Source: Octopus vulgaris (lineage: Eukaryota). Taken from it: a stretch of DNA of 64,000 bases. Under the pieces are notes generated by a model that did not search any database, was not told where the DNA came from, and worked only from the letters and a program-made list of their open reading frames with translations. The translations under genes and the position numbers were made by a program. The DNA is taken from positions 114,142,001 through 114,206,000 of the forward strand of contig OX597820.1 in the NCBI GenBank assembly GCA_951406725.2. Direction: 5' to 3'. Of this stretch, positions 20,193 to 51,690 are shown in pieces (within the stretch, counting starts at the first letter, position 1; every line of letters begins with the position of its first letter).

Positions 20193-21053
20193 GTTGACTA
20201 TTTTTTCTTTCTCATTGGACCGCTGGTGGCGAAAAATTTCTCTTGAATTTTTTGCTACCCTGATATTGATTAATATATATATATTATGGTTATTTGTTTT
20301 GCGCATTTTATCTAAGTTTTTTTTATTGTCTTCATATATTGTGTAACTCCTGTCTCCTGTTTCCGTGGAGCTGATATTTGTACATCCCCGTCATATCCTT
20401 GGTAACACGTTGCTGCTCATAAATAAACGAACTCTTGTTTATCAAAAAAAGAATGCGATTTATTATGTTATTAAATACATGTAACATAGGACTTGAATTA
20501 AAGTTACTTCTAAAATAGAAATTGTGTTTGACGAATAACGAAATGCTGTAACTTCATTCCTATTGTTTTCGTGCTTTTAGTTGTTTCCACATCATATGCC
20601 TATCTATGTTTTCACTATGGAAATATTTCCCTTTCATTCAATTTTCCAACTGCTTAAATGACATAACTATTTTTAAGAATAGAAAATAAACATTAAAAAC
20701 TGAAAGTGAATTTTTGAAATATAGCTGCTATACTGGATCAGTTGAGATAAAGTAGGCTTTGATCACGAAGGAGAAAAATAAAATCGATAATAAACTCTTA
20801 GTGATTTTTAAAAAAAATTATTTTTTAAATATAAGCGTAATATATCTTTATACTTTCCACTATTATTTAAATTTCGTTATTTTTTCTTTTTTTTTTTTGT
20901 CCAGATGTTTAAAGATATATATGTGTGTGTGTGTGTGTTAAAGTTGGCCAATGTGATTTGTGACTCCAGTAGTGCGAGGTAGGTTCTGTGTGAGGGAAAG
21001 AAACACCTGGGGGAGAAAAAAAAAAACAGGTCATTGCTACTACAGGTTAGAAA

Positions 21054-21090
21054 ATGTCCACGATGTCTGAACCACTTACATTAGAGAAAG
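21054..21090 (+). CDS. LIN7: LIN-7 homolog coding exon 1 (MSTMSEPLTLEK)
   Basis: AAAATG start and AAAG|GTATTT donor. Translation resembles the LIN-7 N-terminus (EPxxLERD) and joins exon 2 in frame. Confidence 0.9.
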
Positions 21091-21450
21091 GTATTTTCAT
21101 TTCAGTTTTATATATTTATAATATGTATACATATATTTTCTGTACATCAACCGTACGCATTTAGTACACCTCTATTTCTCGTATTCTAATTCTCTAACAT
21201 ATATTTATCAGGTTTATTTATTTACTTCTAAACTCAACTTTTAAGCAATTATGACACCTTTACCCAGGACGTCGTCTCTTCTCTATCGAATCACCGATTA
21301 TTTTTTTATACCGATTCTTCTATTATTGTATTTTATTTACTAAACTCTAACACATTTTCATTGATGTTTATGCGGCCTACTTGCATTCATAATAATACAT
21401 ATAATACACAACACATAATCCGAAATATTAACATGTGTATATATAAATGA

Positions 21451-21519
<69 letters not shown>

Positions 21520-24500
21520 TTATATACATACACACGCAAATCCATTTTACATGTGTTATATGTATTTGTATACTCATACACGTATCATTGAATGAATATA
21601 TTTGACAATTTAGTTTCTGATGTTCTGGGGGAAAAAAAAAGTAAATGAGATGGTCACGACAGGGACGCTTTCCACTACAGATCGGTTCTCTCAGGAGCTA
21701 AACAACAACTAAGTCTATTTCTAACAAATGTAGAATGGCTTCTGTGTGGTCGCATGATTTGCTAGAAATAACAGTTGAATCTCCCCATCCTTCAGATCAC
21801 ACCCTCCTGTCTTGAAATAGGAAAGGACAATTAAATACTGTACCTAATGTCTTATGTATACGAAATGACGAGATATATAATAAACTCAGTGAAAGCGTGT
21901 ATTGTTATTATTACTCACACATATCTACCTGATTTCTCTAGATAGCTTGTGTAGTGATTCTATTTTCACGTTAACATACCCATCTGCAACTTCTGCGAAG
22001 GGTTCGATTCCCGCCCTACATACACATTCAATTGCTTACATTTTACTTTTCATGGTGACGTCCTTTTAATTGTTTCAACTAATTTTCCAGAAATAGTTTC
22101 TATGTCAGGCATGACAATTGTACAAAATGACAGGCGTTACATTCCTCTGTGTGTCATAAGGAGACAATTTGTCGTTATCGTTTTGTAGGTATTTAGAATT
22201 ATCTGAATTGTTGGAACATCTTATCAAACTAAAATAAAAGGCAGAGTGCAAAGTTTACCTTTTGAGATTTCAAGAAATATACTTATTAATAAAACACTTG
22301 TTTCTTATATGAAAATAATAACTCTACTTTGAAAATGAAATTCACTTTTTAAAATTCATTATGAAAAACATTTCTGATTGCACTGGTTTAATTTAGGTTT
22401 TAGAAATTAATAATTTTAAAGCCTCATGAATCTGAAAATAATGTGATAATTAAAATAAAAAGGAAATGTTCGTTAATCATTTCAGCTCTACTTCCTGCTT
22501 AGGGTTAAACATTCCAGAATGCTTGTATTTTTCGACTAATACATATACATATATATATATAATATAAAATAAATATAAGAGAGTGGTCACTATATGGCTC
22601 ACTCTAGCACCAGTTAATCCAAAAGGTTTCAACCACAAAAATACATGTTTCCCATGAAAGTCAGTACGATGCTGCATTTATAATTAATTAATCATATATA
22701 TATATATATATTATATATATAAGCTGGCAGAATCGTTAGCACGCTGGGCAAAATGCTTAGCAGCATTTCATCCATCTTCATGTCCTAAATTCATCCGTGT
22801 TCACCATCTGTGGTCGACTTTGCCTTTCATCCTTTTGGAGTTGATAAAACAAGTACCAGTTGAGTACTGGAGTCGATCTAATCCACTCAACTACTCTCTC
22901 TAAATTGTTGACCTTGTGCCCGAATTTGAAACATTTAAGAAACAGACGCCCTTCAGTCATAAATGACCATGAGATTGCACCTCAAAGGTTCCCCTCCAAG
23001 GCACAAGTCTGGGCAAGGTTGTTTATGGAAGCCCAGCAGTCGCTCATACATACCAGCCTTTCCACGCCACCAATGGTATCCAAAGGAAAGGCAACGGCTC
23101 ATAGAGCTCGGCACCAATGACAGCGCAACTTATTACTACAGCTCAGTGAACTGAAGGAATGTGAAATAAAGTGTCTTGCTAAAGTCTAGGAATTGAACTC
23201 ACAACCTCTGAGCCATGTGCCAAAATTTGAAACAATTATTATCATTAATGTGGAGAGCTGGCAACAGTTTTTGCACGTTGAGTAAAATGTTTAGGGTTAT
23301 TTTTTTCCAGCTCTTATGCTAAGCTCAAATCTTGTTGAGACCAACTTTGCCTTTAGTCCCTCTGGAGTTGAGGAAGTAAAGTACCAATCAAGTACTGGGA
23401 TCGGTGGTAAAGACTTACCCCGTCCTAAAATTGCTGGTCTTGTGTCACAATTTGAAACCATTATTTGAAATCAGAAATCATTAGAGAAGCAGAATCATTT
23501 GAACATTTGAAAAAAAACATACTTAGTAGTATTTGTTCTGGCTCATTGTGTTACAAGTTCAAAACCCACTGAGGTCAACTTTGTCTTTCATCTGTTCAGG
23601 TTGATAAAATAAAGCACCAGTCAAATATTGGGGTCAATGTAATCAACTAAGCCTAATTCTCCCCCTAAAATTACAGGCCTTCTGTCAAAATTTGAAGCAC
23701 AAAGATAGCAGGTTGAGAGAATCGTTTGAGTATCAAAGTACTTGGTGATATTTTTTTTCTGGCATTTTACATTCTGTGTTCAAATAATGCTGAAGTCTTT
23801 TCCTTTTCATCCTTTCGGTGTCAATCAAATAAGTACTTAGAACATAAAAAACAAAATGCAAAGTAAAATGAGATAAGAGATGAAAAAGTAACAGTATTAC
23901 TTGATGACTAATCTATATTTGCATTTGCAAGTATGAGTTTTAAGTGTAAGATATCTTTTCACCTTCTTATCGTCATCATCATCATTTAACGTCCGTTTTC
24001 CATGGGTTGGACGGTTTAACTGGGGTCTGGGAAGCCATGGAGGCTGCATCAGGCTCCAGTCTGATTTGGTAGTGCTTCTACAGCTGGATGCCCTTCCTAA
24101 TGCCAACCACTCCGTGAGTGTAGTGGGTGTTTTTTACGTGCCACTGGCACAGGGGCCAGAGCAGGCTGGCAAACAGCCACGATCAGTTGGTGCTTTTACG
24201 TGTCACCGACACAGACGCCAGTCAGGCGGTGCTGGCATCTGCCACATTTAGACGGTGCTTTTTATGTGTCATTGGCATGGGTGTCTTAACTACAATTTCC
24301 ATTTGAATTTTTATTTTGATGTTGATGTACTTGACTCAACAGGTCTCCTCAAGAACAGCGGGTCACTCACAGCAAGCCGTCCTGCGAGCCATGCACTCAC
24401 TTCATTTGCCGGGTCTTCGAAGTCACAACATATCTCCAGAGGTCTCGGTCTTTCGTCATAGCCTCTGTACAAAGGTCATGCTTGACCACCTTGTCCCATG

Positions 24501-24929
24501 TCTTCCTGGGTCTACCTCTACCCTGGATTCCTTCAACAGTTTGGGGGTGGCACTTCTTCACACATCTTAACATGTATGAGTAATTTTCTTTGATTCTATA
24601 ACTGACATAATCTTTAAGGTAACATGTTAGTACTATCCTTAAGGTTGCATATATGTCTGTGTGTGTAAAATCTTTATTCTTATATATTTAGATGTGTTTA
24701 TATCTCTCACATGTATATGTATTTCTCTTTGAGAGAGTGTAGTGTGATCTTGCATAAATCATATTATTTTAATCATTAAACATTTGTTGGATGCTGGCAT
24801 GAGATGGATGGTTTGACAGGAGCTGCTAAGGTCGGGAGTCATACCAGGTTCCATTGTCTGTTTTGGCATGGCTTCTTCAGCTGGATGCCCTTCCTAACAC
24901 CAACCCCCTTTACAGAGTGTAGTGGGTGC

Positions 24930-25510
24930 TTTTTACATGGCACCAGCATCACTGCTTTTTATGTGACACCAGAAATGGTGCTTTTTACATGGCATCAGTG
25001 TCACTGCTTTTTACATGGCACAGGCACCAGTGCTTTTCATGTGGCACAAACATCAGTGCTTTTCACATGGCATAAGCACTGGTGCTTTCCACATGACACA
25101 AGCACTGGTGCTTTTCATGTGGCACAAGCATCACTACTTTTTACCTGACACCAGCACTGGTGCCTCTTACATGGCATTAGCATCACTGCTTTTCATGTGA
25201 CCCGAGCATCACTGCTTTTTATGTAGCACCAGTGCTTTTCATGTGGCACCAACATCAGTGCTTTTCATGTGGGACTAGCATCACTGCTTTTCATGTGGAA
25301 CCAACATCAGTGCTTTTCATGTGGGACTAGCGTCACTGCTTTTTATGTGACACTAGTATCACTGCTTTTTATGTAGCACCAGTGCTTTTCATGTGGCACC
25401 AACATCAGTGCTTTTCATGTGGGACTAGCATCACTGCTTTTTATGTGGCACCAGAACCAGAGCTTTTTATGTGACACCTGCACCAGATGCTTTTCATGTG
25501 GAACCAGCAC
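24930..25510. repeat. Minisatellite, about 21-bp unit (TGCTTTTCATGTGGCACCAGCATCAC-like), expanded inside an RTE tail
   Basis: More than 20 degenerate head-to-tail copies are visible. Confidence 0.85.
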
Positions 25511-25529
25511 TGATAGGGTCATCAAAAAT

Positions 25530-26670
25530 ATATATAACAGTTTCTATCACATGCCTGTGGGGAAAACTAGAAGTAGTTGAGAGCTTCCATTACCTCGGTG
25601 ACAAAGTCAGTAGCAGAGGTGGATGCTCTGAGAATGTAACTGCTAGAATAAGAATAGCCTGGGCAATGTTCAGAGAGCTCCTACCTTTGCTGGTAACAAA
25701 GGGCCTCTCGTTCAGAGTAAATGGTAGACTGTATGACGCATGTGTGCGAACAGCCATGCTACACAGTAGTGAAACATGGGCTGTGACTGCTAAAGACATG
25801 CCTAAGCTTGCAAGAAATGAAGCTAGTATGTTCTGCTGGATGTGTAATGTCAGTGTGCATACACAACAGAGTGTAAGCGCTCTGAGAGAAAAATTGGACA
25901 TAAGAAGCATCAGATGAGGTATGCAAGAGAGACAATTGCACTGGTATGGTCATATGTTGCATATGGATGAGGCAGCTGTGTGAAAAAGTGTCACACTCTA
26001 ACAGTGGAGGGAATCTGTAGAAGAGGTAGACCCAGAGAGACCTGGGATGAGGTGGTGAAGCATGACCTTCAAACATTGGACCTCGTGGAGGCCAACAAGC
26101 GACTGAGACCTTTGGAGATATGCTGTGCTTGAGAAGACCTGGCAAGCCAAGTGAGACCGTAACTGTGGCCTATGCCTGTGTTGCATAACTGGCCTATTTA
26201 AGAGTACCCTTCAATCATTGGGCAATAAACTGTGCTTGAGAAGACCTGTTGAGTCAAGTGAAATCATTGTACTACCTGACTGGCAGCTGTGCCGGTGGTA
26301 TGTAAAAAGCACCATTCGAATGTGGTCGATGCCAATCCCACCAGACTGGCTTCTGTGCTGGTGGCACATAAAATGCACCATACAAATGTGGTTGTTGCCA
26401 TTCTCACCTGACTGGCTCCTGTGCCAGTGCTTTTAAAAAGTACCATTCGAGCATGGTTGATGCCAGTACCATCTGACAGGCCCTCATGCCAGTGGCACAT
26501 AAAAAGCACCCACTACACTCTCGGATTGGTTGGCATTAGGAAGGGCACCCAGCTGTAGAAACCCTGCCTGATCAAATTGGAGCCTGGTGCAGACTTCTGG
26601 CTTGCCAGTCCTCAGTCAAACTGTCCAACCTATGCCAGCATGGAAAAGGACGTTAAACAATAATGATGAT
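25530..26670 (+). mobile_element. 5'-truncated RTE LINE with 3' UTR and (GAT)n tail
   Basis: KLEVVESFHYLGD...ARIRIAW...RLYDACVRTAMLHSSETW, then the repeat-rich 3' UTR. Confidence 0.9.
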
Positions 26671-26683
26671 ATATACATATATA

Positions 26684-27078
26684 GGCGCAGGAGTGGCTGT
26701 GTGGTAAGTAGCTTGTTTACCAACCACATGGTTCCGGGTTCAGTCCCACTGCGTGGCACCTTGGGCAAGTGTCTTCTACTATAGCCTCGGGCCGACCAAA
26801 GCCTTGTGAGTGGATTTGGTAGACGGAAACTGAAAGAAGCCTGTCATATATATATATATATGTATGTGTATGTGTTTGTGTGTCTGTGTTTGTCCCCCCA
26901 ACATCACTTGACAACCGATGCTGGTGTGTTTACGTCCCCGTCACTTAGCGGTTCGGCAAAAGAGACCGATAGAATAAGTACTGGACTTACAAAAGAATAA
27001 GTCCCGGGGTCGAGTTGCTCGACTAAGGGCGGTGCTCCAGCATGGCCGCAGTCAAATGATTGAAACAAGTAAAAGAGT
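26684..27078 (+). mobile_element. tRNA-derived SINE family B. Other copies: 5646-5935 +, 14466-14865 -, 34948-35185 +, 54395-54757 -
   Basis: A/B-box-like TGGCTGTGTGG and GGTTCAGTCCC, CORE-like ACCTTGGGCAAGT, internal (TA/TG)n, tail GACTGAAACAAGTAAAAGA. Confidence 0.85.
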
Positions 27079-27434
27079 ATATATAAGCGTTGGGTATGTT
27101 CCTAGTAGTTAACCAATGAAGCACATTCACTGCCTGTGGCTACCTGGCTTCATCCATGGTAATTATGCAATTGTTGCTGGATCTACCTCAGGAATTCCTC
27201 AGTGTACATCGAGTATCTGATCAGATGCTGTATTAAATTCAAGCGAAATAGTTCATTTAACAAGATACTCCTTGTTACATCACACTTCTGCACCAAGGGT
27301 GCATCACAACTAGTTGTATAGCTTCCCACCTGCGACAGATTGATGCAGGATGTGTTGAAACGATTGTTGTGAGCAATAAAGTTTCCCATGCATTCCATTT
27401 CCTGACTCTATCATTCATTTATTTATATATATAT

Positions 27435-27734
27435 CACCGTGAGCGACCAGGCTATCAGATGTTGCTACACATCGCTGGTCACAATGCGCTTTGCATAGTT
27501 TTAGCCTTCAAATGATGCCACCCCATTGGCTAAGTGAGCAGGTCAACAGAAGAAATTGTGAGAGAAAGTTGTGGTGAAAGAGTACAGCGGGGATTGCCAT
27601 CACTCCCTGCCGGAGCCTCGTGGAGCTTTAGGTGTTTTCGCTCAATAAACACTCACAACGCCCGGTCTGGGAATCGAAACCGCGATCCTACAACCGCGAG
27701 TCCGCTACCCTAACCACTGGGCCATTGCGCCTCC
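27435..27734 (-). mobile_element. tRNA-derived SINE family C. Other copies: 57322-57630 -, related 15322-15610 -
   Basis: Minus strand GGCGCAATGGCCCAGTGGTTAG...GGTTTCGATTCCC head with conserved body; adjacent to (CA)n. Confidence 0.8.
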
Positions 27735-28439
27735 ACACACACACACACATACACATATATATATATAAAGCTAAGTGTGTCAAGCTAAGTAAAATCTGTC
27801 ATCCTTACATACAAGCATGTCCTTTGCAGGTGCCATGTAAAATGCACTCATGCCAGTTCTGTATGAACACACCCATGCTGGTGGCATGTAAAAAGCACCC
27901 ACCACACTCTGTAAAGTTGTTGGCATTAAGAAGGGCATCCAGCCATAGAAACCATGCTGAAACAGACAATTGCAGTCTGGACTGCTCTCCAGCTGCCCAG
28001 CTCCTGTCAAACCGTCCAACCCATGCCAGCATGGAAAATGGACGTTAAATGATGATGATATACACACACACACACACACACATATATATAAAAACCCACT
28101 TTAGTATTTTGGTGTTAACTTTCTCTTTTTGTTACATAAATATCATATTCGTTTGCTCATTTAACAAGAAAGCAAAGCTGGTTTCCATATTCAGTTTGTT
28201 GCCAATCAGAAGTGGAGCTAATATGTTACCCAGTTTAATGTTACCACTCCAGGCTCTCTATATAACCCCCTACATGGATGCTTGGCCTACTAGAAACTAG
28301 ATTATTTATCCCATTTATTTATTTAAGTAGTTACACCAGTTAAAGTTCATTCAGTCAAAATCTTTATACCGCTCTGTCACTTAGAATTTGGTAAATACCA
28401 GTAATATTGTTTCATTGAGGAAATTAAATAGTATGGAAA

Positions 28440-29150
28440 CATACATGACTAGTGGCCGAGACCTTTGAAAATATGCCGTGCGTGAGAAGACCCGGCAAGC
28501 CAAATGAGACCATAATCTCGTGGCCTATGTCAGGTGGGTTACCAGCCCACTTATTGTACCTTTTCCTTCTTTGGACACTAAAACTCTGCATGCAAAGACC
28601 TGTTCAGGCAAGTGAAATCAAAAATAAAATTCAATGACTGGCGTCTGTGCTAGCGGGGTGCAAAGAGCACCATACGAGTGTGATCATTGACAGAGCGGCT
28701 AACCAGCTTCCTTGCCAGTGGCACTTAAAAGGTACCATTCGAGTGTGATTGTTACCAGTGTGGCATTACTGGCACTCGAGCCCCATGCTAGTAGGGTATT
28801 AAGAGCACCATCCAAGTGTGATCGTTGCCAGAGCAGCTATCTGGTCTCCGTGCCGGTGGCATGTAAAAGACACCATTCGAGCGTGATTGTTACCAGCATC
28901 GCCTTACTGGCACCCGTGCCGGTGGCATGTGTGAAAGATTCGAGCGAGGTCGTTGCCAGTGCTGCTTGACTGACCCCATGCCGGTGGCACGTAAAAGCAC
29001 CCACTACACTCTCGGAGTGGTTGGCGTTAGGAAGGGCATCCAGTTGTAGAAACTCTGCCAGATCAAGATTGAAGCCTGGTTCGCCAGCCCTCAGTCAAAA
29101 TCATCCGACCCATGCTAGCATGGAAAGCGGACGTTAAACGATGATGATGA

Positions 29151-29155
<5 letters not shown>
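28440..29155 (+). mobile_element. RTE 3'-tail repeat. Other copies: 1-90 +, 2720-3230 -, 13830-14290 -, 23970-24565 -, 27820-28058 +, 37525-37720 +, 42730-42990 +, 45365-45560 +, 48185-48450 +, 51245-51619 +, 52195-52705 +
   Basis: Shared GTGCCGGTGGCACGTAAAAGCACC units, GGAAGGGCATCCAGCTGTAGAAA and CCAACCCATGCTAGCATGGAAAGCGGACGTTAAAC(GAT)n; same as the tail of the 25530 LINE. Confidence 0.88.
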
Positions 29156-29192
<37 letters not shown>

Positions 29193-30200
29193 CCATCTAT
29201 GTTACCAGAACATTCTAGAAATTCATAAAACTTCTAAAAAAAAAAAGTTCTAGAAAATTCTGCCTCAGCAGCTTGGCACTGAATCTGTCTGAAATGTAAT
29301 GGAAAATAGGTCAGTTTCAAAACATTGATATCCTGGTCACAAAAGCAAATTTTGAAGGGAATAGTAGTCATTTCCTTTTATTCTGCAAAGAAGCAAAAAG
29401 CAAATAAATAGAAAACAGAAAATAACACTAACTGACTAAAGACAAAAAAACAAAAAATTTTGTTACACAATCTTATTTATCTTCATCCTGAATATTCTAT
29501 TTTCTTTCCATACTCTCTTATTATGTGACTTCTTTAAATGCTGGTGATCTAATTAATATGCCCACCAGTAGAATAATTGGATTTACTGCCTGTCTTTGCT
29601 GTAGAATGGTAGTAAATTTGTGGGATCCTGGTGGACAGTCCATCCCAGGGCAGCATGGAAAATAGTCATTAAATGATGATTACGTCTTATCTCAAGGCAT
29701 TTTTAATAGTCATGCCATATTGACAGCTGAAACTAAAGCTACCTGTTGAGGTTTTTTTATTTTAAATTATCACCTGTATAGGCTCTATGAGAGACACTTA
29801 CCATGGTGAAAGGTGAGCAAGTTGGAGATTGTTAATTTGAAAGAAGCAGTATGTCCTTGTATATAATTAAGTTATGCCACAGATTCTTTGTGGTGGTAAC
29901 AGTGTGATAGATTAGGTTTAATGACAGGAATAAAGGTTTCATTTTAACGTCCTTATTACTGCCACCACTCAAAAGCTCAGACTTTTTCAGTTATATTTGG
30001 TGTTGACTGTTGTTGCAGTAAAGTACTATTAAATTATTCCCTCTATTTAGACATGATGTTAAAATGTAAGGACCTCTACCCACTTGGTGATGAAATAGCT
30101 AGAAACCATGACGCTATGTCATACATAAATACCTTTGGTCTTTAATTTGGTGTAGTGAATATGTACGTATATATATATATACATGTTTAATGACAGGAAT

Positions 30201-30430
30201 AAGGCGGCGAGCTGGCAGAACCGTTAGTGCGCCGGGCGAAATGCTTACCGGTAATTCGTCTGTCATTACGTTCTGAATTCAAATTCCGCCGAGGTTGACT
30301 TTGCCTTTCATCCTTTCGGGGTCGATAAATAAAGTACCAGTTTCGCACTGGGGTCGATGTAATCAACTTAATCCCTTTGTCTGTCCTTGTTTGTCCCCTC
30401 TATGTTTAGCCCCTTGTGGGCAGTACAAAA
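30201..30430 (+). mobile_element. tRNA-derived SINE family A, young copy. Tandem arrays at about 90-990 -, 17290-18610 mixed, 22720-23840 +, 40640-41110 -
   Basis: Head GGCGGCGAGCTGGCAGAA..GTTAG, B-box-like TTCAAATTCC, core TTGCCTTTCATCCTTTCGGGGTCGATAAA..AAGTACCAG. Confidence 0.85.
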
Positions 30431-31744
30431 AAAAATAAATATATATATATATATACATGTATGTATGTCTGTCATGTTTATGGAGGTGTGGCTTCAAGTC
30501 TCATAGATGTTAAATGATGATGATGTTGATGAAACATGCTCCACTGGATGTGCAGCATCATTGTGTGTAATAAAAGCAGTAAAAATGTGTTAAGAGAAGA
30601 CTGTGTTGGTGTGGACGTGATGTATATGGATGATCACTCACAGTTGATGGAACCTGTGGAAGATGGTGAGATAGTGGTGAAAGCTGATTTTGGATTGCAA
30701 AGACTCATGACAAGAGACTGTGATGATTGGTGATTTGTTGTACTCGAGAAGACTTACCCAGCAAGTCTTCTCAGTCACAACATTGTGAATGAGGCTTTCA
30801 AAACATAATGTATCTGCATGCTATTCATTCAACTGAACCCCTTTATCTCAAGCCATACTTATCCCTCATTCTTATCATCTACATTTCTATCTCATTCTTT
30901 GATTAATATTTATCTCTCACTCCTTTCCACTTGCAACCTTCACACCTCATCACCCTAACACATCCCTCCATCACTCTCCTTATCTACTATATTATTCTGC
31001 TATTGTAAGAAACCTGTTTCTATATACCTTGCTATCATTGTTTTGTTGATTTTTGTGTATCCATGCTATAATCTCTTAAATATGTTACCATGTAAATTCT
31101 GACTCCTTGAAATCACTATTTTCCTCTTTTGAGTCTCGCTCCAGCTTTCCCCAAGTAAAGTGCAAAGTAAAGTAAAGTAAAGTGAAGTGCAAATCTCCTA
31201 TAAATTTGTTCCTACTCTCTGTCAACATAATTTAATTATTTTGTTATCATGTTTCTGTTTAAATATACTGCCTTTGTTTCAGTTGATTTTGAAAATAATG
31301 AATAATTTATTAAAATAACTTTGCCTTTAAGTTGGTGGTTTTAAACAGGAAGTTTGTATTATAGAACCAGGGGCAATCTCGAATGAATTTGTATCAAAAT
31401 GGTTAAAGCATCCACTCTAATTCTAATCCTTCCTTTCATTTGAGAGGGCTCTTTAGTCTTGCAAGTTACAAAGCAACCCCTATAATGCTGGTGCCATGAA
31501 AAATGCACCCAGTACATTTTGTAAAGTGGTTGACATTAGGAAGAGTACCCAGTCAGAAATCAAACCAAAAATCATGCTTGCATAGAAAGCAGATCTGAAA
31601 TGATGACGAGGAGGATACTATAGAATATAATTTACAAAAGTATGACTTGAAACTGCATCTGGTGGTGGGAACCTGGTTTGGTGAATTCCAGTGTTTTGAA
31701 GAGTATGAAATAACCTCTTAGCTACTAATTGTTCCTAGGTCTAT

Positions 31745-32020
31745 TCCAACCATAAGTAGTAGCACTTGTCAGTCTCATCTATAGATTAAATAACATATAA
31801 CCACTTGAGCTAAGACATTTTGCAATCATGGGATGCAGTATGGTGGACGTGAACTATTTTGACGGATGAAGTTATTCAGTGAATACTCAATAACTTCATC
31901 CGCCAAAATAGTTCACGTCCACCATACTGCATCCCATGATTCCAAAATGTCTTAGCTCAAGTGGTTATATGTTATTTAATCTATAGATGAGACTGACAAG
32001 TGCTACTACTTATGGTTGGA
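31745..32020. repeat. Near-perfect 276-bp palindrome
   Basis: Arms of about 136 bp with about 3 mismatches and a loop of about 4 nt centred at 31882. Confidence 0.95.
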
Positions 32021-32302
32021 GTAAATATCACTAGATGCTGAGTGGATAAACAGAAAACAAAGGTCAAACCAATTCCAGTTAGCAAACTACTGCTATCATC
32101 TGTAGTTACTGCATGCACAGTTGAGCTTTTTCTTTTAGCAAAAGACCAATGTGACTGAAGCCTAGGCCAGACATTCACGTGCCATTGCTTGATGTCCAGA
32201 CTGAGCAAGTTGCCTCACCTGGACACACAGAAATGGAAAGTAACACTGGAAATGAATCAAAATAAAAAAAGCAAGAAAAAGGCATGCACACTATCAGCTA
32301 TA

Positions 32303-32498
32303 CCAGGGGTCTCCAAAATGGTCAATCTCAACCCCTGGGGTGGGGTTGATAGGGGCTATTCACAGGGTCAATAAATGCCTGAAACTGTACATCTATTTCA
32401 TTATTATCTATTTATTTTTTTTGTACATGCCTGAGGGTTGATGAGAGGTCAAGGATTCCATGAAGAGGTTGATGGTCTAAAAAGTTTTGGGACCCCTA
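32303..32498. mobile_element. hAT-like MITE
   Basis: CAGGGGTCTCCAAA ... TTTTGGGACCCCT inverted ends. Confidence 0.5.
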
Positions 32499-33982
32499 AT
32501 CTATACACTACATCGTGAAATATTGGTGTTCCTTATAATTTCTGAAGCAACCTTAAATACTCATGTCATTGTCATAAACAGCTGAGCATCCTCCTGGATC
32601 TCACCTGATACTTGGGATGGAAGGCCAACCATAAAAATCTTCATTCTTAGTAAATATCACAGGTTAAAAAGATTACTGAGATACCACTAGACTGCTCCTA
32701 CTTACATGTTTGTTGGGCCCTTTTATTCAGTATGTCATTATAGTAATCAACAGGCAGTAGACCGACCAGCAGATTGCTTGGGCTGGTTTCTTCAACAAAT
32801 TGGCAGGAGGATATTGCATTAAATTAGGATTTAGAGAATAAAATTCATTTTCGTTCTTGGTATTTTTTTTTTATGCTTTTAGATGCTTTATGTTCATTTT
32901 TTGTCTCCGTAGAAATTTAAGTAGCATGTCTGAAAATGAAAAAGAAAAATATATCATTTATAATATGACCTGGGTATGACTATAAATTGCATCCGTTAGT
33001 GAGGCTCTGGTACGGGAGTTCCAGTGTTTTGGGGAGTATGGAACTACCTCATAGCTACTATCGTTCCAGGTCTACTATGACCTGTTATGTCCCAACTATG
33101 GGTTAACTAGCATATGTGATGACAATCCATCTAAACGCGGAACGCGGTGATGTAGAAATACCCTTGGTTGGTGTCAGGGCGTGCAGTAAAGCCATCTCAC
33201 TGCGGCCTGTTACTCGGTACTAATCACAGAGACTGAGAGAGCAGTCCTCATATTGTACAAGCATTTATCACTGTAGTTCAATGACATACCAATGCCTGTC
33301 TGGTGACCTCATTTGTCATTCCATCTGGCAATGGAAAAGTAGCAACATGTGTAGACCAGTTGGAAGCACATAATGCGTTACGACTGTCACCTATACTTGA
33401 AAGCTCACAGATTTGCAGTGGGACTGAATAGTCATCTGAGAGGTCAAGGATGGACAATCAGAAATGCCATTGACAACAGTGAATTACTAAGAGATGGCAA
33501 TCATCAAGTATGGTGTTTTATTGCTAACAAAATATACTATACAACGGTAATTAAATCAGTTTAATAGTTTTAATAATAACAAACTCATTAAATATTATTT
33601 GCACGAATGTGGAATTCCTGAATGTCTACAAAAATTCTAAGCTGTACTAGTTTATGTTAAAAAAGTTGGGGGGGGGGGGGCTAATGCTGTTTCGCACCTC
33701 TCCCTGAAAATGCATTTTTTTGAAAAAAATTTTTTCGGATTTCCACATTTTAGATGTCAGAGATTATGATTTGCAAAAAAAAAATGTTTTTAACCCCCCC
33801 CCCCTCTAGTTTTGACTTTGTTTTCTATAAAGAGATCGTACCGAATTGACGAACATAAGCGTTTTACTTGTGTTTGCCTTAAATAATTGTAAATAATAAT
33901 TTAATGTAAATTAAATTTATTTCACTTGAAATTCTATAAGTTTTCAACAGCGATTTAGCAGACATCTAGCAAGGCCAAGCTA

Positions 33983-34027
33983 ATCCAGACTGATGAAGGG
34001 CAACTACCCTGGAACTAGTCTTTGAAT
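33983..34027 (+). ncRNA. Hammerhead ribozyme motif with GAAA changed to GGAA
   Basis: ATCCAGA-CTGATGA-AGGG CAACTA CCCT-GGAA-CTAG-TC-TTTGAAT: 4-bp stem II, palindromic stem III, GUC triplet. Confidence 0.7.
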
Positions 34028-35483
34028 GCTGGCGTTGTTGGTGCTTATCTCCCCTGTTTGAAAACTTAAGGACACAGAACGTTGTGTCACGTAGCAAACT
34101 GGAAACGGTGTTTCCTAGGGCTAAATAACAGTAACATTCTTCCCTTTCCTGGGACTGCCACATTAAGTCGGCAATAAACCATCACTTTATCGTACTGCTA
34201 CTGCATAACACTCTCAGAGAGATTTAGAAATACAATATTTCTAATTTTAAATATAAACCATTTTACGAGAAACAAACATTAATGTTATGAAGTTTAATAA
34301 GGGGTTCAAACCGCCCCCCTTTAACATTTTGAGCTTTTCATCCATTTATTTATGTGTCTGTCTATCTATTTATTCCTGTCCGTTTACTTATAAAATATAC
34401 TTGTCAACTAAATGTGGCGGTCCTATAGAAGACGGTGTTACTGTTGTATTTAGCCACAAGAAGACATATCTATCTATTTCTTTATATAGACATCTTATTG
34501 CTTATTGAATTTAAAATTTTGAAAACCAGGTTTCTTGCATATTCGAAATCTTCGTCATCTTAAACATAGGTGAAAAGAATTCGCTAAAGTTCAAAATTTT
34601 CGATGTGTGTGTGTGTTGGGGTTATTTATTATTATTATTATTATTTTGCATATTCGTAATCTCCGACATCTAAAACGTAGAAATTGGAAATTTTTTTTTA
34701 AAAAAAAGCATTTTTAAATGAGAGGTGCGAAACTGCTTTAGCTCCCCCTTCCCACCACAAAAAAAACTATAAACTGGTAATTAATTGGGTGTAATTAATC
34801 TTAGTGGCGTATTATTTTTTTTTTGTAAATTGGGTGACTGTAGCATATCATTTCAATGTGGTAACTTTATCGGCGGAGTTCGTATCCTTTCTACTTCTGT
34901 TGCTAAACATTGCAATTTAATAGCAATACTATTAAATTGCAATTATAGGCGCAGGAGTGGCTACCAACCACATGGTTCCGGGTTCATTCCAACTGCGTCT
35001 TTCGGGCCGACCGAAACCTCGTGAGTGGATTTGGTAGACGGAAACTGAAAGAAGTGCGTCGTATATATGTATATGTATATGTGTGTGTGTGTGTTTACGT
35101 CCCCGTAACTTAGCGGAGACCGATAGAATAAGTACGATGCTCCAGCATGGCCACAATCAAATGACTGAAACAAGTAAAAGAATACATAAATGGTGAGCTG
35201 GTAGAATAATTTTCGTCCGTCTCATGTTCTGAACTCAAATTGCGCTGAGGTTGATGATAAAATAAACACCAGTTGAGGACTGTAATCAACTTAGTACTTG
35301 TAATCAAGTCGATGTAATCAACTTAGTACTTTCCCGAAATTGCTGGCCTTTGTTAATATTTCTCGCTCCAAGGCCGAATCGTTAGCACGTCGGAAACAAA
35401 ATACCTTCGTATATTTGTTCCGTTCTGAATTTAAATCGTACAGAGATTAACTTCGCCTTTCGTCCTTATTCGATCAATAAAGT

Positions 35484-35765
35484 GGTACTACTAGCGAACA
35501 GTGGTCCCGGTGCGCGCTAGCTAGTCGTGACTAGTCGATCCTTACTTTGTGTTTTTGTGTTTTATTTACTTTGTTTAAAAAATTATTTACTTTGTGTTTT
35601 TGTGTTTTATTTACTTTGTCTAAAAAAATTATTTACTTTGTGTAAAAAAAATTATTTTGTGTTTTATTTACTTTGCTAGGTAGTCGTTGTAGGATCGACT
35701 AGTCACGACTAGCTTGCGCGACTACGCGTGTGCGCGCACCGGGACCACTGTTCGCCTGTAGTACC
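35484..35765. mobile_element. Mutator-like MITE (282 bp) with 9-bp TSD, inserted into a SINE
   Basis: Long TIRs GGTACTAC..GCGAACAGTGGTCCCGGTGCGCG; exact TSD CAATAAAGT at 35475-35483 and 35766-35774. Confidence 0.88.
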
Positions 35766-38369
35766 CAATAAAGTAAAGTACCAGTCGAGTAAGGGAGTCG
35801 ATATAATCGACAATACTCATCCCCCCCCCCCAAATCTCGTACTTCTTGTTAAAAAACAATATTACATCCAAAGCTATTTCCGGTGCTCTGCTTTATTAGT
35901 TCCCTTTAATCGTTGTCGAGTACTTTTGAGTCACCATTCTCCATAAAATAGTAATAATATTACGAAATATGCATATCCTTGTAGGTACTCGATGTAAATA
36001 TTGGGGGGAAATATCCAGAAGTAGAACAAATCTGATAACTGACCATGTAAGTTGAATCTTCTTTTCTTTAACTATCAATATTAAACTAGTTATAACTATA
36101 ATGGTAGTTTCTAATTACTTTAAAATAGCTTAGTGCCCGTAATATGCTTAACTAGAGTAAGTTATTGATCCACGAAGCGCTGGGATTTGCACTTACATAG
36201 CATGACTACTGAGCACGGTTTATGAAAATGTGACCATCATGCATACATAAAATAAAAAGTTAAAATATCTTCTTGGTATATAATAGTGGCAATATCATCT
36301 GAAAAGTCATTAGTTGAGCAATTAGTCCTCTTGCATTCTGTGGGGTATCGGAGCGTTTGAGCGACATTAGACCCTAATAAACGCAACATAAATTAAATGC
36401 ATCTATCTGGGCTACAATCGTGGCCCATCGATCTGTGCCTGGCAGCCACGATCGTGGCCCGTCAAGCTTTATATGTTAACTGGTTTACAAATTACAAAAT
36501 AATATTAGCTACTGACAGATATTTTTTATCTTCTTCGCTGCATCATTATTTTGACGAAGGTAAAGAATACGCACCCTAGGCGTTTAAGGGTTAGGGTTAC
36601 GCCGAAAAAAAGGGTGGTGTGCGTATTCTTTATCTCAGCCATTATTTTCCCTTTAATACTTAAATAGCTCAGTGGTACACAATGGATATATACACCTAAT
36701 AGGCATTTTGTGACGTTCGTTCGTTATACGGCGCACAGTTGTGAAAAATTCCTTCAAATGGGACGGAAACTACTGATTTCAGAAAAGCGAATATTTTTTT
36801 TATGAAATTTTCTACAAATACCTTTCAGATAGTATAGATTCCTGCACAATCTGAAAAATATTTGTGTTAAATTTCACTAATAAAATATCAAGGGGGTGTC
36901 ATTCTATATTTATGTGCATGTATGTATATTATGCATACGCACATAAACACACACATACACAAAAATACATAACCAAGCGATTCAGCTGAAAATATTACGG
37001 TAATTGCCGAACAAATAATTTCACTTTTAATAAACTTTCTGCGGCCAAAAATAGCATAACTATACAAATAACTACTTCTCAAAAATTTTTACCCCATGCC
37101 ACACTTTAATTTTACAAAAAACAAAGTGCACCTACCATGAACCAAGTATATATCATCATCTTTTATTTTTATTTCTGCTGAAGCTAAAAGCAAGTTTCTC
37201 TAAAATTATATTTCTGTATCATTCACTGCATTCACCTCTATCCATCTCCTTTTGCACATTTGCAAACTTACCTACCCACTTATCCTGTCCAATCTCTTGT
37301 ACTACATTTCTTTTAGTCACCCTCCTAAGACTAGGGAGTACACCCTGATACCTCTTCAACACCTTCTTTTATTTCAATCTTGAGTACCTATGTATCTCCT
37401 CTACAGCAAAACACCTATTCCTTGCCCTCTATCATACTTTAACCTCTCATTATCTTGCATAAAGCTGCCTCCTTCAATGCTATATCACACTCAGTTGATG
37501 AGTCTTGTATGTTACTAGATGACTTCATTAGTGCCAGTATCTTGTAAAAAGCACCCTGTACACTCTGTAAAGTGGTTAGTATTAGGAAGGGCATCAAGCC
37601 ATAGAAACCATGCCAGACAGTGGTACTTACTATAGTCCTCTGTATTGCCAGCTGCTGTTGAACTATCCAACCTATGCCAGCATGGAAAACATGTTAAATG
37701 GTGATGATGATGATAATGATCTTTTAACATCCTTTATCTATTCTGGCATGCATTGGATGTTTTGACAGGATCCAGTGGATTGAAGGACTGGACAGCCTTT
37801 CTAATGCCATCCATTTTACAACATACTGGGTACTTTTATTATGGTACCGTCACTAGTGCAGCTATCATGTAGCTCGCAAGACTAAGCTCCCCTTTGTCTG
37901 GGTAGGGCTACAGTTGAGAGGGATGTGGCCTTATCCATGAGAGCTTAAAATATGAAGAGAAAAAATCAAAACAAAACAGGATTCTTTCTTTTGAAGAAGT
38001 ACATGGCTACTTGCATAGAAAAGTGAACAGGAAGTTTTAATCAAAAGTTTATTGTAAGATTTATTAATTTTTACTTGGACCCCATTCTGAAGTCCCACAT
38101 TCCACCAAAATATTGCCATGCTCCACCTTGAGGAACAGGTCTTAAAACAAATTTAAATACTTTCTCACTAGTCACCCACAGTCTACCTCTTCTGTTTGTT
38201 GTAAAACTTTAAAGCTTAGTTTGTAGAATCTTCTTGTAGTAAGGATTCTCTGGTGTTCCATAGTGAAATCATGTCAAGTGGGAGAAGGGAGTAAGGCTTT
38301 GTTAAATAGATTTAATTTTTGTAAGAATGGAGTTTCTAATTTTGTTGTACTCCCAATTTCTGACTATTA

Positions 38370-38396
38370 TTTGTGCTTGTTTATTTCCACTTCAGA
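38370..38396 (+). promoter_or_regulatory. Candidate 3' splice acceptor for the torsin exon
   Basis: TTGTGCTTGTTTATTTCCACTTCAG| with an upstream CTGAC branch-like motif; no ATG between 38396 and the torsin start. Confidence 0.55.
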
Positions 38397-38565
38397 GTAA
38401 TTGGTGTATATCTCCTTTGAACTAGCCAAGCAGTTGCTGTGATCATTTGAAAACCATACCATTTTGGACCGTCTTGAGGAAGTAGTCCTAATTGTTTTGA
38501 CTTTAAGTTTGGGAGATTTTCAGTTTCTCCCTTCATCATAAAATCTCTTGACCAGATAATCAGCA

Positions 38566-39501
38566 ATGTGGTTTGTTTCTTTCTTAATTTTCCACTTCTT
38601 ATTGCAACAGGGTGTATGCATCAACCCATTGTGTTATATAATAGACTGCTGTGACCAGGACATTATTTTGAATTCACAACAGTTAAGAGACGATCTGAAA
38701 AGTATGCTTCATGGTCAACATTTAGCATGGAGGACAATTGCTAATCATATAATTTCCCACTTTTCACAGCAGACACCCAGGAAAGCTTTAGTACTGTCAT
38801 TTCATGGAGAGACTGGGACAGGTAAAAATTATGCAAGTGAAATCATAATTAAAAATGTGTTCCGTTATGGAATAAAAAGTGATTTTGTGCATGTTTATCA
38901 TGCTGCAGTTCATTTCCCACATGAGTCCATGTCTCACATTTACATTGAAAAGTTAAAGCATGAAATTAAAAATGCTGTTTATCTCTGTCCAAGGGCTGTT
39001 TTTATTTTTGATGAGTTTCATTTAATGCCACCAAAGGTTATTGACATTCTCCAAGTCTACTTAGATTTCCATGCTGAAGTGGATGGCATCAACTTCCGTA
39101 AAGCTGTATTTATATTTATATCTAACCTTGCTTCAGAGAACATAAGAAACTTCACTATAAGCCAATACAAGAAAGGTATTAATCGACATGATATCAAATT
39201 GCGAGACTTAGAATTCAGTATTGCACATGCTTCACTCACTCAAAAGGGTGGTTTTTATGGTAGTGATCTAATTAAAAGTCATCTTGTGACTGCCTATATT
39301 CCATTTCTACCCTTACAGCGCACACATGTAAAACAATGCATCGATGATGAAATGAAACGACGTAATCCTCACAAGTTCTACAATGAAGAATTTATCGACA
39401 AAGTATTAATCGAATTACATTTTGTAAACAGTTTTTCAGAGACTGGCTGTAAACGTGTTTTTGAAAAAGTGGCTTTTGCTCTCATTAATGACGATCTCTG
39501 A
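38566..39501 (+). CDS. Torsin-family ER-luminal AAA+ ATPase (torsin-1A-like), single coding exon, nested in LIN-7 intron 1
   Basis: 311-aa ORF with signal peptide, CYIIDCC, LHGQHLA, torsin-type Walker A GETGTGKN, Walker B FIFDE, sensor 1 FIFISN, IPFLPL and sensor 2 GCK. Confidence 0.95.
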   Translation: MWFVSFLIFHFLLQQGVCINPLCYIIDCCDQDIILNSQQLRDDLKSMLHGQHLAWRTIANHIISHFSQQTPRKALVLSFHGETGTGKNYASEIIIKNVFRYGIKSDFVHVYHAAVHFPHESMSHIYIEKLKHEIKNAVYLCPRAVFIFDEFHLMPPKVIDILQVYLDFHAEVDGINFRKAVFIFISNLASENIRNFTISQYKKGINRHDIKLRDLEFSIAHASLTQKGGFYGSDLIKSHLVTAYIPFLPLQRTHVKQCIDDEMKRRNPHKFYNEEFIDKVLIELHFVNSFSETGCKRVFEKVAFALINDDL

Positions 39502-39647
39502 CCTTGATGGCTATTGCTCTAGTCTCTATTTTTACCACTGAAGACATAGAAGATTATTTTACTGTTATCCTCGGCTTGTGTTCCAAAGTAAGCATCTCTC
39601 AACTGAATTCACTTCATTGGAAAATCGATTTCACCTTTGTTATTTGT

Positions 39648-39685
39648 ATTAAAGTACTTTTTTTTAAAAGGTGTTGTGTTTTGCA
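39648..39685 (+). terminator. Candidate torsin polyadenylation signal
   Basis: ATTAAA at 39648-39653 followed by a GT-rich tract (GGTGTTGTGTTTTG). Confidence 0.4.
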
Positions 39686-39715
39686 TCTTCTTTGACTTTT
39701 GTTCACCTGTATATA

Positions 39716-40569
39716 CACAAGGTTTAGTCAAAAAGTATCTGACCTTTGGTGAAAAAACAAGTAATATTAAAAGAACTCACCATTTTGATTTAGTTTCCTT
39801 CGAAGTATTTGCCTTGGGAGTCTACACACTTCTGCTAGCATTCCTGCCACTGCTGGAAACATTTCTGGAAATTACTTTTTGGGATGCTGTAGAGCTGTGC
39901 CATCAAATTTTGCGTAATGTTCTCTGTTGACTCAAATCTTCTCTCTCTGAGTGATTTTTTGAGTTTTGTGATTAACCAAAAGTCACATGGAGTAGGAGGC
40001 CCGACGAACAAGTGGTGTGTTTTGCTTGAGGAGGAACACTTAGATGATGTGGGCAGAATGAGTGGGTGTGTTGTCATGGTGAAGTTACCAGTTCTTTGCT
40101 GCCCACAGGTCAGCTTGTTTTCATAGATGGTCTTCATAGACTATTCCTTGAACCTTTGCAATCATTTCATCGTTTCAGCTAGTTGATGGTCTGCCACAAC
40201 GTGGCTCACTGTCCACTGAGGTTTAGCCGTCTTTGAACCAGTTGCACCACTCCTTTATTTGTGTTTTTCCCATAGCATCATCTCCAAAGACCTTCTGAAT
40301 CTTCTCGATAGTCTGGGCTTGCATTTTTGGCAAAATTTGATACCCAATGTGCTCGGTCATCTTGACTTAAAAAGAAAAGTCACACAGCACACGCTTCACG
40401 TCTGTACTCAATGTGTCACTGTGGGCAAATGTCATAACCTACAGACACAAATATTTTTGCATATGCTCTGGTAGGACGTGGCCATCTAATACCCATGCAG
40501 ATTTTGCCCGCACATTATTATTTTGTGCAAAAAAAATCAAGGTCGGATACTTTTTGACTACACCTCGTG
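39716..40569 (-). mobile_element. Mariner transposon, internally deleted
   Basis: About 31-bp TIRs (CACAAGGTTTAGTCAAAAAGTATCTGACCTT and its near reverse complement); remnant PCDFWL..KLK...RRFES...FQKCFQQW. Confidence 0.88.
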
Positions 40570-43500
40570 TGTGTGTATGTATATATATAATTATTTTTGA
40601 AGGATACATTTATCTTCTGCAAGAATGTTTAAACAATTTCCAATCTTTTCTAAAGGCATAAGACCTGAAATTATGGTGGAGGATATTAGTTGATCATATC
40701 GACCCCAGTATTTTACTGGTTCTTAGTTTATCAACCTCGAAAGGATAAAAGGCAAAGTTGACCTTGGCGGAATTTAAATTCAGAACGTAAAGACGAACAA
40801 AATGTCACTAAGCATTTTGTTTGGCATGCTAACGATTCTGCCCTAATAATAATAATAATTGTAATCCTTTTTCCTATAGGTGCAAGGCCTAAAATTTTGG
40901 TGGAGGGATTAAGTCAATTACATCAGCCTGAGTCTATAAATGGTACTTAATTCATTGACCCCAAAAGAATGAAAGGCAAAGTCAACCTCAGCAAAATTTG
41001 AACTCAGGACGTAAGGACAGAGGAAATGCTGCTAAGCATTTTACCCAGCGTGCTATCAATTCTGCCAGCTTGCCGCCCTAATAATATAAATAATAATAAT
41101 AATAATAAATTACAGCTGAGTGTGTTTGATCACACCAAGGGCAACATGACTATACCTAGCAATGTTTTATGTCATTGTGGACTAACACGCTTGTGACTAA
41201 TCCTGTTTGGTGTATTGATTAGGTTATAAGTTAACTTGTGATTCATAACTTGATTATACATTTTATGAGGGAGATTTCTGTTGATATTGTCTCAAACTGC
41301 ACAGCACACATAATTGTGAATCTTGGGCTTCTGATTTAGATAACCACATCATTATCATCTTTCTAGCTACTCCTACCACCCTTATATATTGTGAGATAGC
41401 TATATATCTTCTCTATAGCAAGACCTCTATCACACTTTAGTGTCTCAATTTCTAGTGGTAATCTACCTCCTCTCTACTGGACCCCTACTTTGTTGAGGGG
41501 TCTTCTTTGTCTTGTGAGTTACTTAGTGGCATCACTACTGCCAGTGTCATATGAAAAGGATTGGTTTTTAAGCAAAGTTATCCAGCCATAGAGACCCTGC
41601 TAAAGCAGACATTGGAACTCTGCACAGTCCCCTGGTTTGTTGGTTCCTGTCAAATTATCCATGTCAACATGGAAGATGGACATTAAATGATTATGGTGAG
41701 GAAACTTTTGATGGTGCATAAATATATCTCATGTCAAAACCAAAAATTAATCTCACTCATATTTGACCATTGTAATCTGGAAAGAGTCACAGAATGAGGT
41801 TAATGTCTCCAGCCTGATATATTTAAGACATCAGGTTAGAAACATACCTTTACCTTCTTTTCACAACCAGAAATTTCCACATTTTTTCTTTCTTATTTCT
41901 AATGTTTTTATCAAATTGCGTATCTCTGAATTCTAGTGATTATCATTTAATTACTTATTGTTACCCACCAGTCTGTCTGTCCTCACTTTACTGGGTAAAC
42001 ATACACTTTTAATTTTATTTTTTTCTTCAGCTCTTATTAAAGGCCTCTTAAAACAATGAAAAGCTGTAATGTTCTGTATGTGTATATAAATATATTTCTC
42101 TGTATAATAAGCCAGTATGTTGGCTGGTTGGTTTATTTCTTCAGTCTCGCTCTACTTTGTATAGAGAGTAAAAGAGAATTAATGTACGTGGTGGAGGATG
42201 AGTGAAAAGCCATAAGTAAAGGGATACTCTACACATACTCAGTAAGGATCAGAGAAACTGAAGAGGAAATTAAGAACAGAGTATTTATGTGAGGTGTTCA
42301 AATTTTACAGAGATAAGTTTTTGCTGGAGTAGATTGTGATTATGTTGACAAAATATAGAAAAATATATATTTATTTTAAATATACAAATGAAAAATTTAT
42401 TTTATTTCATTTTATTTTCAGGTAACAAATATTTTTCTTTTGAAAATTAGTATTCATTTAATTATTTTGTATAATTGCCTAAGAAATTTGATATCAATTA
42501 AATTTCATTTATTATATTTATGCTATATTTCCTGATATTACCCATAGTGGTAAAAATATACTTCTAAAGATATATCATTCAGAATTGCGTATAAAGCTAT
42601 ATATATAATTTCTAGAAGAAGGTTCCTGACAGACCTTCAGTTCTTTCTCTCTTCATCTAGCAGATAGTACCCTTCATACAAATTCTGCATCCTGATATCT
42701 ATCAGGTTTGTGGCATTTGTTACATTAGACCATGCCAGTGCCGCCCTGACTGGCTTCTGTGCCGGTGGCACGTAAAAAGCACCATCCGATCGTGGCTGTT
42801 GCCAGCCTCGCCTGGCACGTAAAAAGCACCCACTACACTCATGGAATGGTTGGCGTTAGGAAGGGCATCCAGCCGTAGAAACATTGCCAGATTAGACTGG
42901 GCCTGGTGCAGCCTTCTGGCTTCCCAGACCCCAGTTGCACCGTCCAACCCATGCTAGCATGGAAGGCGGACGCTAAACGATGATGATGATGAGACCAATA
43001 CAAGTTTCTGCACAAACCATGCCCACTATAATAATATTCACTTTACAGGTTGTTCATCAAGCCAAAATACCAGCACTAATTCCGTCACACTTTCTTCTGT
43101 AGCAAAGGAGTACAAATAGAGGATGTTGCTAGAAGTCTTCAGATATAATTCAGCATTGTGTCTAAGGTCCCATATCATCATCTAACATCTGCATTCTATG
43201 CTGGCATACATGCATGTATTTTTATAGTTGTTTTATATGGTCATGTTACTGTTGTGTTGTTATTTTATTATGTTAAATTACATATTATTGTATGCTGTTA
43301 CCATTTAAATATATATTGTTTTCATTTGTCTACTTGAACGACTGTCTACCTTTCAATGTATTACTAAACAGCAGCAGATTGAATTGTTAGGTGTCTGTAG
43401 CTACTGACAAATAAAAAAGGAACTAGCTTGTGAAGGTATGATAAAGAGATACTTCTACTGTTGTGTGATAGTAAAATATGGCTATTACCCTTTTAATACC

Positions 43501-43777
43501 AATCCACCTAAAAGCCTTCCATCAAAAGTTCATGTTAGCTTATTTTCCAAATTCCATCTCATTAATGGCAAAGTTCTTACTAGATTCTTCGTTATTTTCA
43601 AAATCAAATTAAACAAAATTTGTGTATTTCATTAGTAATATGGTAACGAAAGAGTTAAATGTGAAAGATTGGCAAAAGCCGGAGGGAAATGGGTTGGGTT
43701 ATAATCCATTAGAGGTACCATGTTAACCTGCATGAAAGGCAGACAACAGGTAAGTTAAGAGGGTGATTGGGTATTAA

Positions 43778-43996
43778 CCCTTTCGTTACCAACCCAGCTG
43801 AAACCGGCTCTGGCTCTGTAGTACAAATGTCTTGTTTTCATAAGTTTTTAATTAAAATCTTCAATCAAACCTTAGTCACAATTACTGTTCCTAACACTAG
43901 ATGAATGATAACGAAGTTATTTTACTACATTCTTTGTTATATTTAAAGTAATTGAGAGAAACAGAACATCTCAAAATAAATACAGCAACGAAAGAG
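43778..43996. mobile_element. piggyBac-like MITE
   Basis: TTAA on both sides; TIRs CCCTTTCGTTAC / GCAACGAAAGAG. A related decayed copy lies at about 43485-43638. Confidence 0.8.
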
Positions 43997-45716: not shown

Positions 45717-45911
45717 CTGCATCAAATGCCAAAGAGGAAAACTAAAAGTAGTCGATAGCTCCCATTACCTAGGTGGCTAAGTCAGTAGTGAGGGTGGATG
45801 CTCCAACAGCATAGCTGCTAGAATAAGCATCCACCCTTACTACTGACTTAGTCACCTAGGTAATGGGAGCTATCGACTACTTTTAGTTTTCCTCTTTGGC
45901 ATTTGATGCAG
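45717..45911. repeat. Inverted repeat, 86-bp arms, 23-nt loop
   Basis: 45717-45802 versus 45826-45911, with 2 differences. Confidence 0.95.
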
Positions 45912-45984
45912 GTCATGATTTCAATTCCTGGACCTGGTGGTGCATTGTGTTCTTGACCAAAACACTTCGGCCATGGGATGTGTA

Positions 45985-46295
45985 TGTCTCATTTTGTTCC
46001 ACTACCTTTTGCCATCTTTGAGGCAGCTTCATGATCCCATCCTCCCAGAACTTGGCACCTTTCTGGGTCATGAACTGATCTAAGTGTCTTTAGTCTTCCA
46101 AAGAATTGAAGTTCTTCCCATTAAGAGAATTCTTTAGGGATCAAAGTAAAGGTGCAAGGTCAGGTGAGTTCAGTGGATGTGGTAGGACATTCCATGCAAG
46201 CTGTACCAATTTTTGCTGGGTTTGCACAGATACAGGAGATTTAGAATTGTCCTGAAGGAAGATGACACCTTTCCAATTGGCCAATTCTGGACATT
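45985..46295 (-). mobile_element. Mariner transposase C-terminal fragment
   Basis: Minus-strand GVIFLQDN, WNVLPHP.NSPDLAP and GIMKLPQRWQKVVEQN remnants. Confidence 0.75.
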
Positions 46296-48990: not shown

Positions 48991-48994
48991 TCCC

Positions 48995-51648: not shown

Positions 51649-51690
51649 ATGTTAACCGGGCAATTGAATTATTGGAAATTCTTCAAATGA
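51649..51690 (+). CDS. LIN7: LIN-7 coding exon 2 (42 nt; DVNRAIELLEILQM, start of L27 domain)
   Basis: TTTCAG| acceptor and A|GTGAGT donor; RAIELLE motif of LIN-7. Confidence 0.93.
   Translation: MLTGQLNYWKFFK

Follow-up and report, generated by a model that had tools for sequence, protein, structure and literature searches.

Introduction

Two described systems come closest to the arrangement considered here, a torsin gene nested, in the same orientation, in the first intron of LIN-7, in a 64,000-nucleotide (nt) stretch of Octopus vulgaris DNA that we call the window (GenBank assembly GCA_951406725.2, contig OX597820.1, positions 114,142,001 to 114,206,000 of the forward strand). One is Inpp5f_v2, which the accessible part of its description presents as an imprinted retrocopy in an intron of Inpp5f with its own CpG-island promoter, and whose transcripts also splice onto downstream host exons, giving a chimera (PMC1796624). 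The octopus torsin shares with it the same-strand position in a host intron and a CpG-rich 5' region, and a predicted torsin–LIN-7 fusion would correspond to the chimera. Unlike Inpp5f_v2, the octopus gene is a DNA-type duplicate with its own poly(A) region, and as about 9 kb of intron and flanks were duplicated together with the open reading frame (ORF), an Inpp5f_v2-type origin by retrotransposition does not apply; promoter and chimera are here predicted from the sequence. The other system is the ChAT/VAChT pair of Ixodes, in which, as far as the accessible text goes, a whole ORF sits in a single exon within the host's first intron, behind a splice acceptor, the shared exon 1 having been confirmed in ticks with RT-PCR and both genes belonging to one pathway (PMC7524744). 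The octopus torsin likewise is a single-exon ORF with a splice acceptor in the first intron of its host, and the tick layout is exactly that of a prediction made earlier for this window, the original prediction below, according to which torsin would be an alternative terminal exon driven from the LIN-7 promoter. Torsin and LIN-7 differ from the tick pair in that they are unrelated, that torsin has a free-standing twin and a candidate intronic promoter, and that a shared exon is hypothetical.

The original prediction had also stated that same-strand nesting is generally the less common form. In D. melanogaster, according to the available portion of one survey, 71.3% of the nestings are antisense and 71.5% of the same-strand internal genes intronless (PMC5174743), and for mammals the corresponding portion of another survey gives broadly similar orientations (PMC11694760). 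The torsin/LIN-7 pair resembles the same-strand pairs described in these portions for Drosophila and mammals, in that a short coding gene without introns occupies a long 5' intron. Same-strand nesting of an intronless gene is not rare, the principle of one promoter for two unrelated proteins is already known from ChAT/VAChT, and what is new here is the gene pair and the lineage only. Utp14b, which is located in intron 1 of Acsl3, was not used as a precedent, as no exon sharing is evident in the accessible text (PMC5750009). Our literature search found nothing on torsin/LIN-7 nesting or on octopus lin-7, and the papers on torsin and cephalopods were unrelated by their listing.

Results

Our analysis indicates that the window contains an intact torsin duplicate nested in LIN-7, and we think it rather likely that its main source of transcripts would be a promoter of its own within the host intron. 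The nesting itself is real, because the six LIN-7 exons translate exactly to the octopus LIN-7 protein P0260 and all five introns are of the GT-AG type (coordinates in Table 1). A complete torsin coding gene, intronless and on the same strand as previously claimed, lies wholly within intron 1; its product matches the Pfam domain Torsin (PF06309) with an E value of 2e-41, TOR1A_C reaching 23.3 bits and thus staying under the cut-off of 27, and it carries what we take to be Walker A and Walker B motifs and the C-terminal cysteine motif. Torsins are AAA+ ATPases located in the endoplasmic reticulum. The positions that had been given for the two LIN-7 donors (A, after 20978, and B, after 21090), for the acceptor at 38396, for the 170 nt without any ATG between this acceptor and the torsin ATG at 38566, and for the ATTAAA at 39648 were all correct, and the join of 21090 to 38396, recomputed from the sequence, again gave an ORF of 13 codons. 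The splice sites had been described as strong, which stood for the acceptor, a site that is probably used: by simple consensus scores of our own, 2 sites in the 30.5-kb intron combine a pyrimidine tract, an AG-free zone and a branch-like motif, and 13 do so on looser terms. It did not stand for donor A, which scores 5/7 on our similarly simple 7-point donor consensus, a score equalled or exceeded by 61 of the 1,830 GT sites of intron 1 (P ~0.26 in 150 nt) and within what chance often gives.

Octopus has two close torsin paralogues and a distant third. The close paralogue of the nested gene lies at G000:C9 (about 38.973–38.983 Mb, hereafter C9), where collinear matches to the window take in the torsin acceptor and its intron; the C9 ORF is intact, with 83% amino-acid identity to the nested copy, and the acceptor is retained. 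Between the two copies, 64/68 positions of the poly(A) region agree, as against 88/120 in the remaining 3' untranslated region (UTR; P 0.0004). We inspected by eye the 113 filtered ORFs of a 120-kb stretch of C9 and could recognise torsin and transposon pieces only, with no coding exon of another host. As LIN-7 exon 1 is missing there, and as the C9 protein is represented by three RefSeq accessions of O. sinensis, this torsin unit, judged from its sequence context, probably works without LIN-7. A retrocopy might have revealed a spliced leader, but we rejected such an origin of the C9 twin, as intron and flanks were duplicated along with the ORF. The nested block would have arrived or left as a copy, in either direction; compared with five outgroups, the two copies carry 8–10 and 7–9 unique changes, and the rate does not separate parent from daughter.

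Several further observations concern the torsin copies. The end of the torsin intron and the 5' UTR (window 38001–38565) are 91–92% identical to C9, with 80% at four-fold coding sites and 72% in the 3' UTR; constraint or gene conversion may have caused this high identity. The third, distant torsin-like ORF (L003, at G000:C2, about 120.158–120.159 Mb, minus strand) is also intronless, is preceded by a pyrimidine tract, and has a modest CpG peak 3–4.7 kb upstream. No named torsin accession of squid or cuttlefish turned up for a comparison of synteny, and a metagenome scan over 28 of 64 parts gave 11 loci with best-segment identities of 24–43%, none of them near enough to be of use.

In octopus, gene bodies are enriched in methylation and one large class of genes is unmethylated at the promoter and start site, according to the accessible part of the published analysis (PMC9476566), and because methylation sits on gene bodies we used CpG retention as a proxy for lasting non-methylation. 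The LIN-7 gene body is CpG-poor apart from its 5' end and an island at 34–37 kb. As parts of the island are repeats, it was re-measured with repeats masked, and the ratio of observed to expected CpG was 1.05, with 0.13–0.30 in the flanks. A ratio of 1.26 was reached by the best 2-kb window of the island, 0.57 being the highest value among 119 windows from the rest of the gene body. In a control with one repeat family, CpG content followed that of the flanks (rho 0.56, P 0.008, 21 other copies); of all 22 copies, the one in the island ranked highest. The island segment 35841–36160 has exactly two matches in the genome, here (C7) and on C9 upstream of torsin. A donor after 36046 (CAT/GTAAGT), 2,349 nt from the torsin acceptor, scores 6/7, which is reached by 8 of the 1,830 GT sites, and is identical in C9. 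In both copies CpG drops about 1 kb past the donor, which roughly resembles the course past LIN-7 exon 1, where the drop comes after 1–2 kb. A CpG island that appears to have been co-duplicated with torsin, together with a conserved donor, is indirect evidence that torsin has its own promoter, which would contradict the original prediction. Two other donor-like sites were set aside, at 38291 with a score of 3/7 and at 36560 in a repeat without C9 counterpart. In and beside the island (33674–36888) there is a cluster of small inverted-repeat elements, and the C9 counterpart has different insertions.

A predicted protein of O. bimaculoides connects the two genes. P0266 (XP_014788654.1, 'lin-7 homolog C-like isoform X1'), found in the LIN-7 cluster, begins with 85 residues of the nested torsin (78/85 identical to the window copy, 63/85 to C9) and continues with LIN-7 from exon 2; in the O. 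vulgaris window, too, the corresponding join of 38821 to 51649 keeps the frame. P0266 shows that O. bimaculoides has the nesting too, and it suggests that an RNA linking the torsin exon with LIN-7 may be made. The torsin exon can thus probably join the LIN-7 splicing unit, and the splicing of the two genes would be interwoven. Against such cross-talk stands that the fusion record is a prediction, sourced only from EukProt (two ids) and MetaClust, and that NCBI now labels a 197-aa form as X1 and may have dropped the fusion. Of the 98 candidates returned by a search for fusion junctions, only 2 were torsin fragments and none was another fusion. Since the donor after 38821 lies in Walker A codons and is present in C9, it can be explained by constraint on the protein.

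At the 5' end of LIN-7, which has a single match in the genome, donor A (GAG/GTAGGT) precedes the LIN-7 ATG at 21054 by 75 nt, and donor B (AAG/GTATTT) ends the coding part of exon 1. A strong acceptor-like site with 16/17 pyrimidines is seen upstream of donor A (20880–20905), and it suggests that LIN-7 has a further 5' exon upstream. Because of this site before 20905 and of a CCAAT at 20948, within the candidate 5' segment, the LIN-7 start site cannot be placed from the sequence. Both O. sinensis and O. bimaculoides have three accessions of a 172-aa form of LIN-7, which starts at Met26 and lacks the exon-1 coding sequence; use of donor A or of the candidate intronic exon would each give this form.

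Farther upstream in the window, the minus strand has a 144-codon ORF (978–1412) without Pfam match, in a zone poor in CpG; the ORF, which has an acceptor-like tract, is possibly an exon of a neighbouring gene.

Table 1. Positions of LIN-7, torsin and associated features in the window
Feature	Position	Strand	Remarks
Candidate LIN-7 5' non-coding segment	20905..20978	+	Ends at donor A; predicted from sequence
LIN-7 coding exon 1	21054..21090	+	12 codons + 1 nt; ends at donor B
LIN-7 intron 1, torsin host	21091..51648	+	30.5 kb
CpG-rich island in otherwise CpG-poor intron, candidate torsin promoter	34001..37000	.	Presumably unmethylated; several small repeats inside
Block duplicated at C9	35841..44785	+	DNA-type, ~9 kb; contains no LIN-7 exon
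Candidate non-coding torsin first exon	35925..36046	+	Two-copy sequence; putative, ends at donor CAT/GTAAGT
Branch-point-like CTGAC, pyrimidine tract and acceptor	38360..38395	+	Kept in C9 copy
Predicted torsin 5' UTR part of terminal exon	38396..38565	+	No ATG
Torsin ORF	38566..39501	+	311 aa; hydrophobic N-terminus, presumed Walker A (residue 81), Walker B FIFDE (146) and GCK (294), C-terminal DDL
Internal torsin donor	38813..38829	+	CAG/GTAAAA after 38821, in Walker A codons; joined to 51649 = in-frame torsin(1-85)-LIN-7
Torsin poly(A) region	39638..39705	+	ATTAAA 39648, GT-rich tract; conserved in C9
LIN-7 exons 2–6	51649..60183	+	Translated exons: 51649-51690, 54808-54956, 55656-55865, 59764-59818, 60083-60183

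Discussion

The nested torsin looks functional, judging from an ORF free of stops and indels, signals of purifying selection, and orthologues in two other Octopus species. Between the nested and the C9 copy, the 933 coding nt show neither a stop nor an indel, as compared with 13 indels in 1,351 nt of the adjoining intron (P ~1e-4), and non-degenerate sites differ less than four-fold sites (56/591 versus 18/89, P 0.005). The dN/dS ratio by NG86 is 0.30, an estimate that is probably biased by transitions, for which reason the site classes were compared as well. In the tree, each copy pairs with its own O. bimaculoides orthologue, so that the duplication is older than the split from that species, and the two copies are equally diverged from O. 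bimaculoides (19 and 17 of 199 columns). All this, together with the intact catalytic motifs and the conserved poly(A) region, makes it highly improbable that the nested gene is a decaying or barely expressed duplicate while the C9 copy does the work. Such a view could draw on the non-degenerate sites, which differ no less than intron sites (56/591 versus 153/1,306, P 0.15), and on the public record: the nested O. vulgaris protein was not found in the protein collection searched, the models of the nested orthologue are partial (in O. sinensis 265 aa that lack the N-terminus; in O. bimaculoides 275 aa, minus 36 residues), and the nested protein departs from that of O. sinensis at 6/265 residues, with no difference for the C9 protein. 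The 36 residues missing from the O. bimaculoides model (P0002), however, fit an in-frame GT-AG interval of 108 nt in the torsin ORF (39098–39205), which would be a cryptic intron or a patch of the gene prediction.

If the nested torsin has a promoter of its own, its transcription would start in the CpG-rich island, the short non-coding exon ending at donor 36046 would be spliced to the acceptor at 38396, and the RNA would end at the ATTAAA near 39648. From the sequence we infer an unmethylated island that acts as the promoter, use of donor 36046, and a joint duplication of gene and promoter before the divergence of O. bimaculoides. Owing to the shared strand, some transcripts would probably cross between the genes, with torsin RNA running via donor 38821 into LIN-7 exon 2, and perhaps a small fraction of LIN-7 RNA would terminate in the torsin exon; such minor splicing of LIN-7 exon 1 to torsin fits an own promoter, and alone it would not confirm the LIN-7 leader as the main source. 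Several points weigh against the intronic promoter. C9 contains 2.1 kb (L011 3372–5515) that are absent from the nested copy and that include the C9 CpG peak, itself partly overlapping a high-copy repeat, as well as further donors such as TCG/GTGAGT at L011 3615 (5/7), and because this DNA is missing, the native first exon may be lost from the nested copy. Between the copies, the candidate exon segment shows 80% identity, with 87–92% in intron blocks, and a 6/7 donor is expected by chance with P ~0.10 in 410 nt and 0.37 across all aligned upstream DNA, the donor having been chosen post hoc. There are CpG peaks elsewhere on C9 too, at least one of them over a retroelement fragment, and an unmethylated island could also be an enhancer.

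The same missing 2.1 kb of CpG-rich upstream DNA would suit the original prediction that torsin mainly serves LIN-7 as an alternative terminal exon, to which donor 20978 or 21090 would lead, its own first exon having been lost or never present, and so would the strong acceptor and the conserved poly(A) region in intron 1, the fusion protein under two EukProt ids, which may reflect two 5' leaders, and the precedent of ChAT/VAChT in the accessible text of that report (PMC7524744). The 172-aa LIN-7 form fits a use of donor A, but the candidate intronic exon gives the same form. We nevertheless regard a LIN-7 leader as the main source as doubtful: the 3-kb intronic island and the conserved donor would be left unexplained, donor A is within chance, and C9 has its copy but no LIN-7 exon 1. 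A CCAAT box at the position found here would usually place the start site downstream of donor A, and an exon starting at 20905 would create a 32-codon upstream ORF that crosses the junction. Less probable still is a single unit from which the choice of splice sites would yield three products, LIN-7, torsin and torsin(1-85)-LIN-7, with the torsin exon terminal in one mRNA and internal in another; the poly(A) site would then set the LIN-7 dose, and the torsin signal sequence would send the L27-PDZ scaffold into the endoplasmic reticulum.

In conclusion, a second torsin, apparently functional, is present at this locus, and its public models are either truncated or absent. The nested gene and its free-standing twin represent a natural experiment on whether a duplicate that lands in an intron of the same strand retains its promoter or takes over that of the host. 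Should the LIN-7 leader be the main source after all, this would be a lineage-specific unit of the ChAT/VAChT kind, for which a standalone counterpart is available to compare. Neither outcome would be a new mechanism, and with a promoter of its own, torsin would be an ordinary nested gene with predicted splicing cross-talk to its host.

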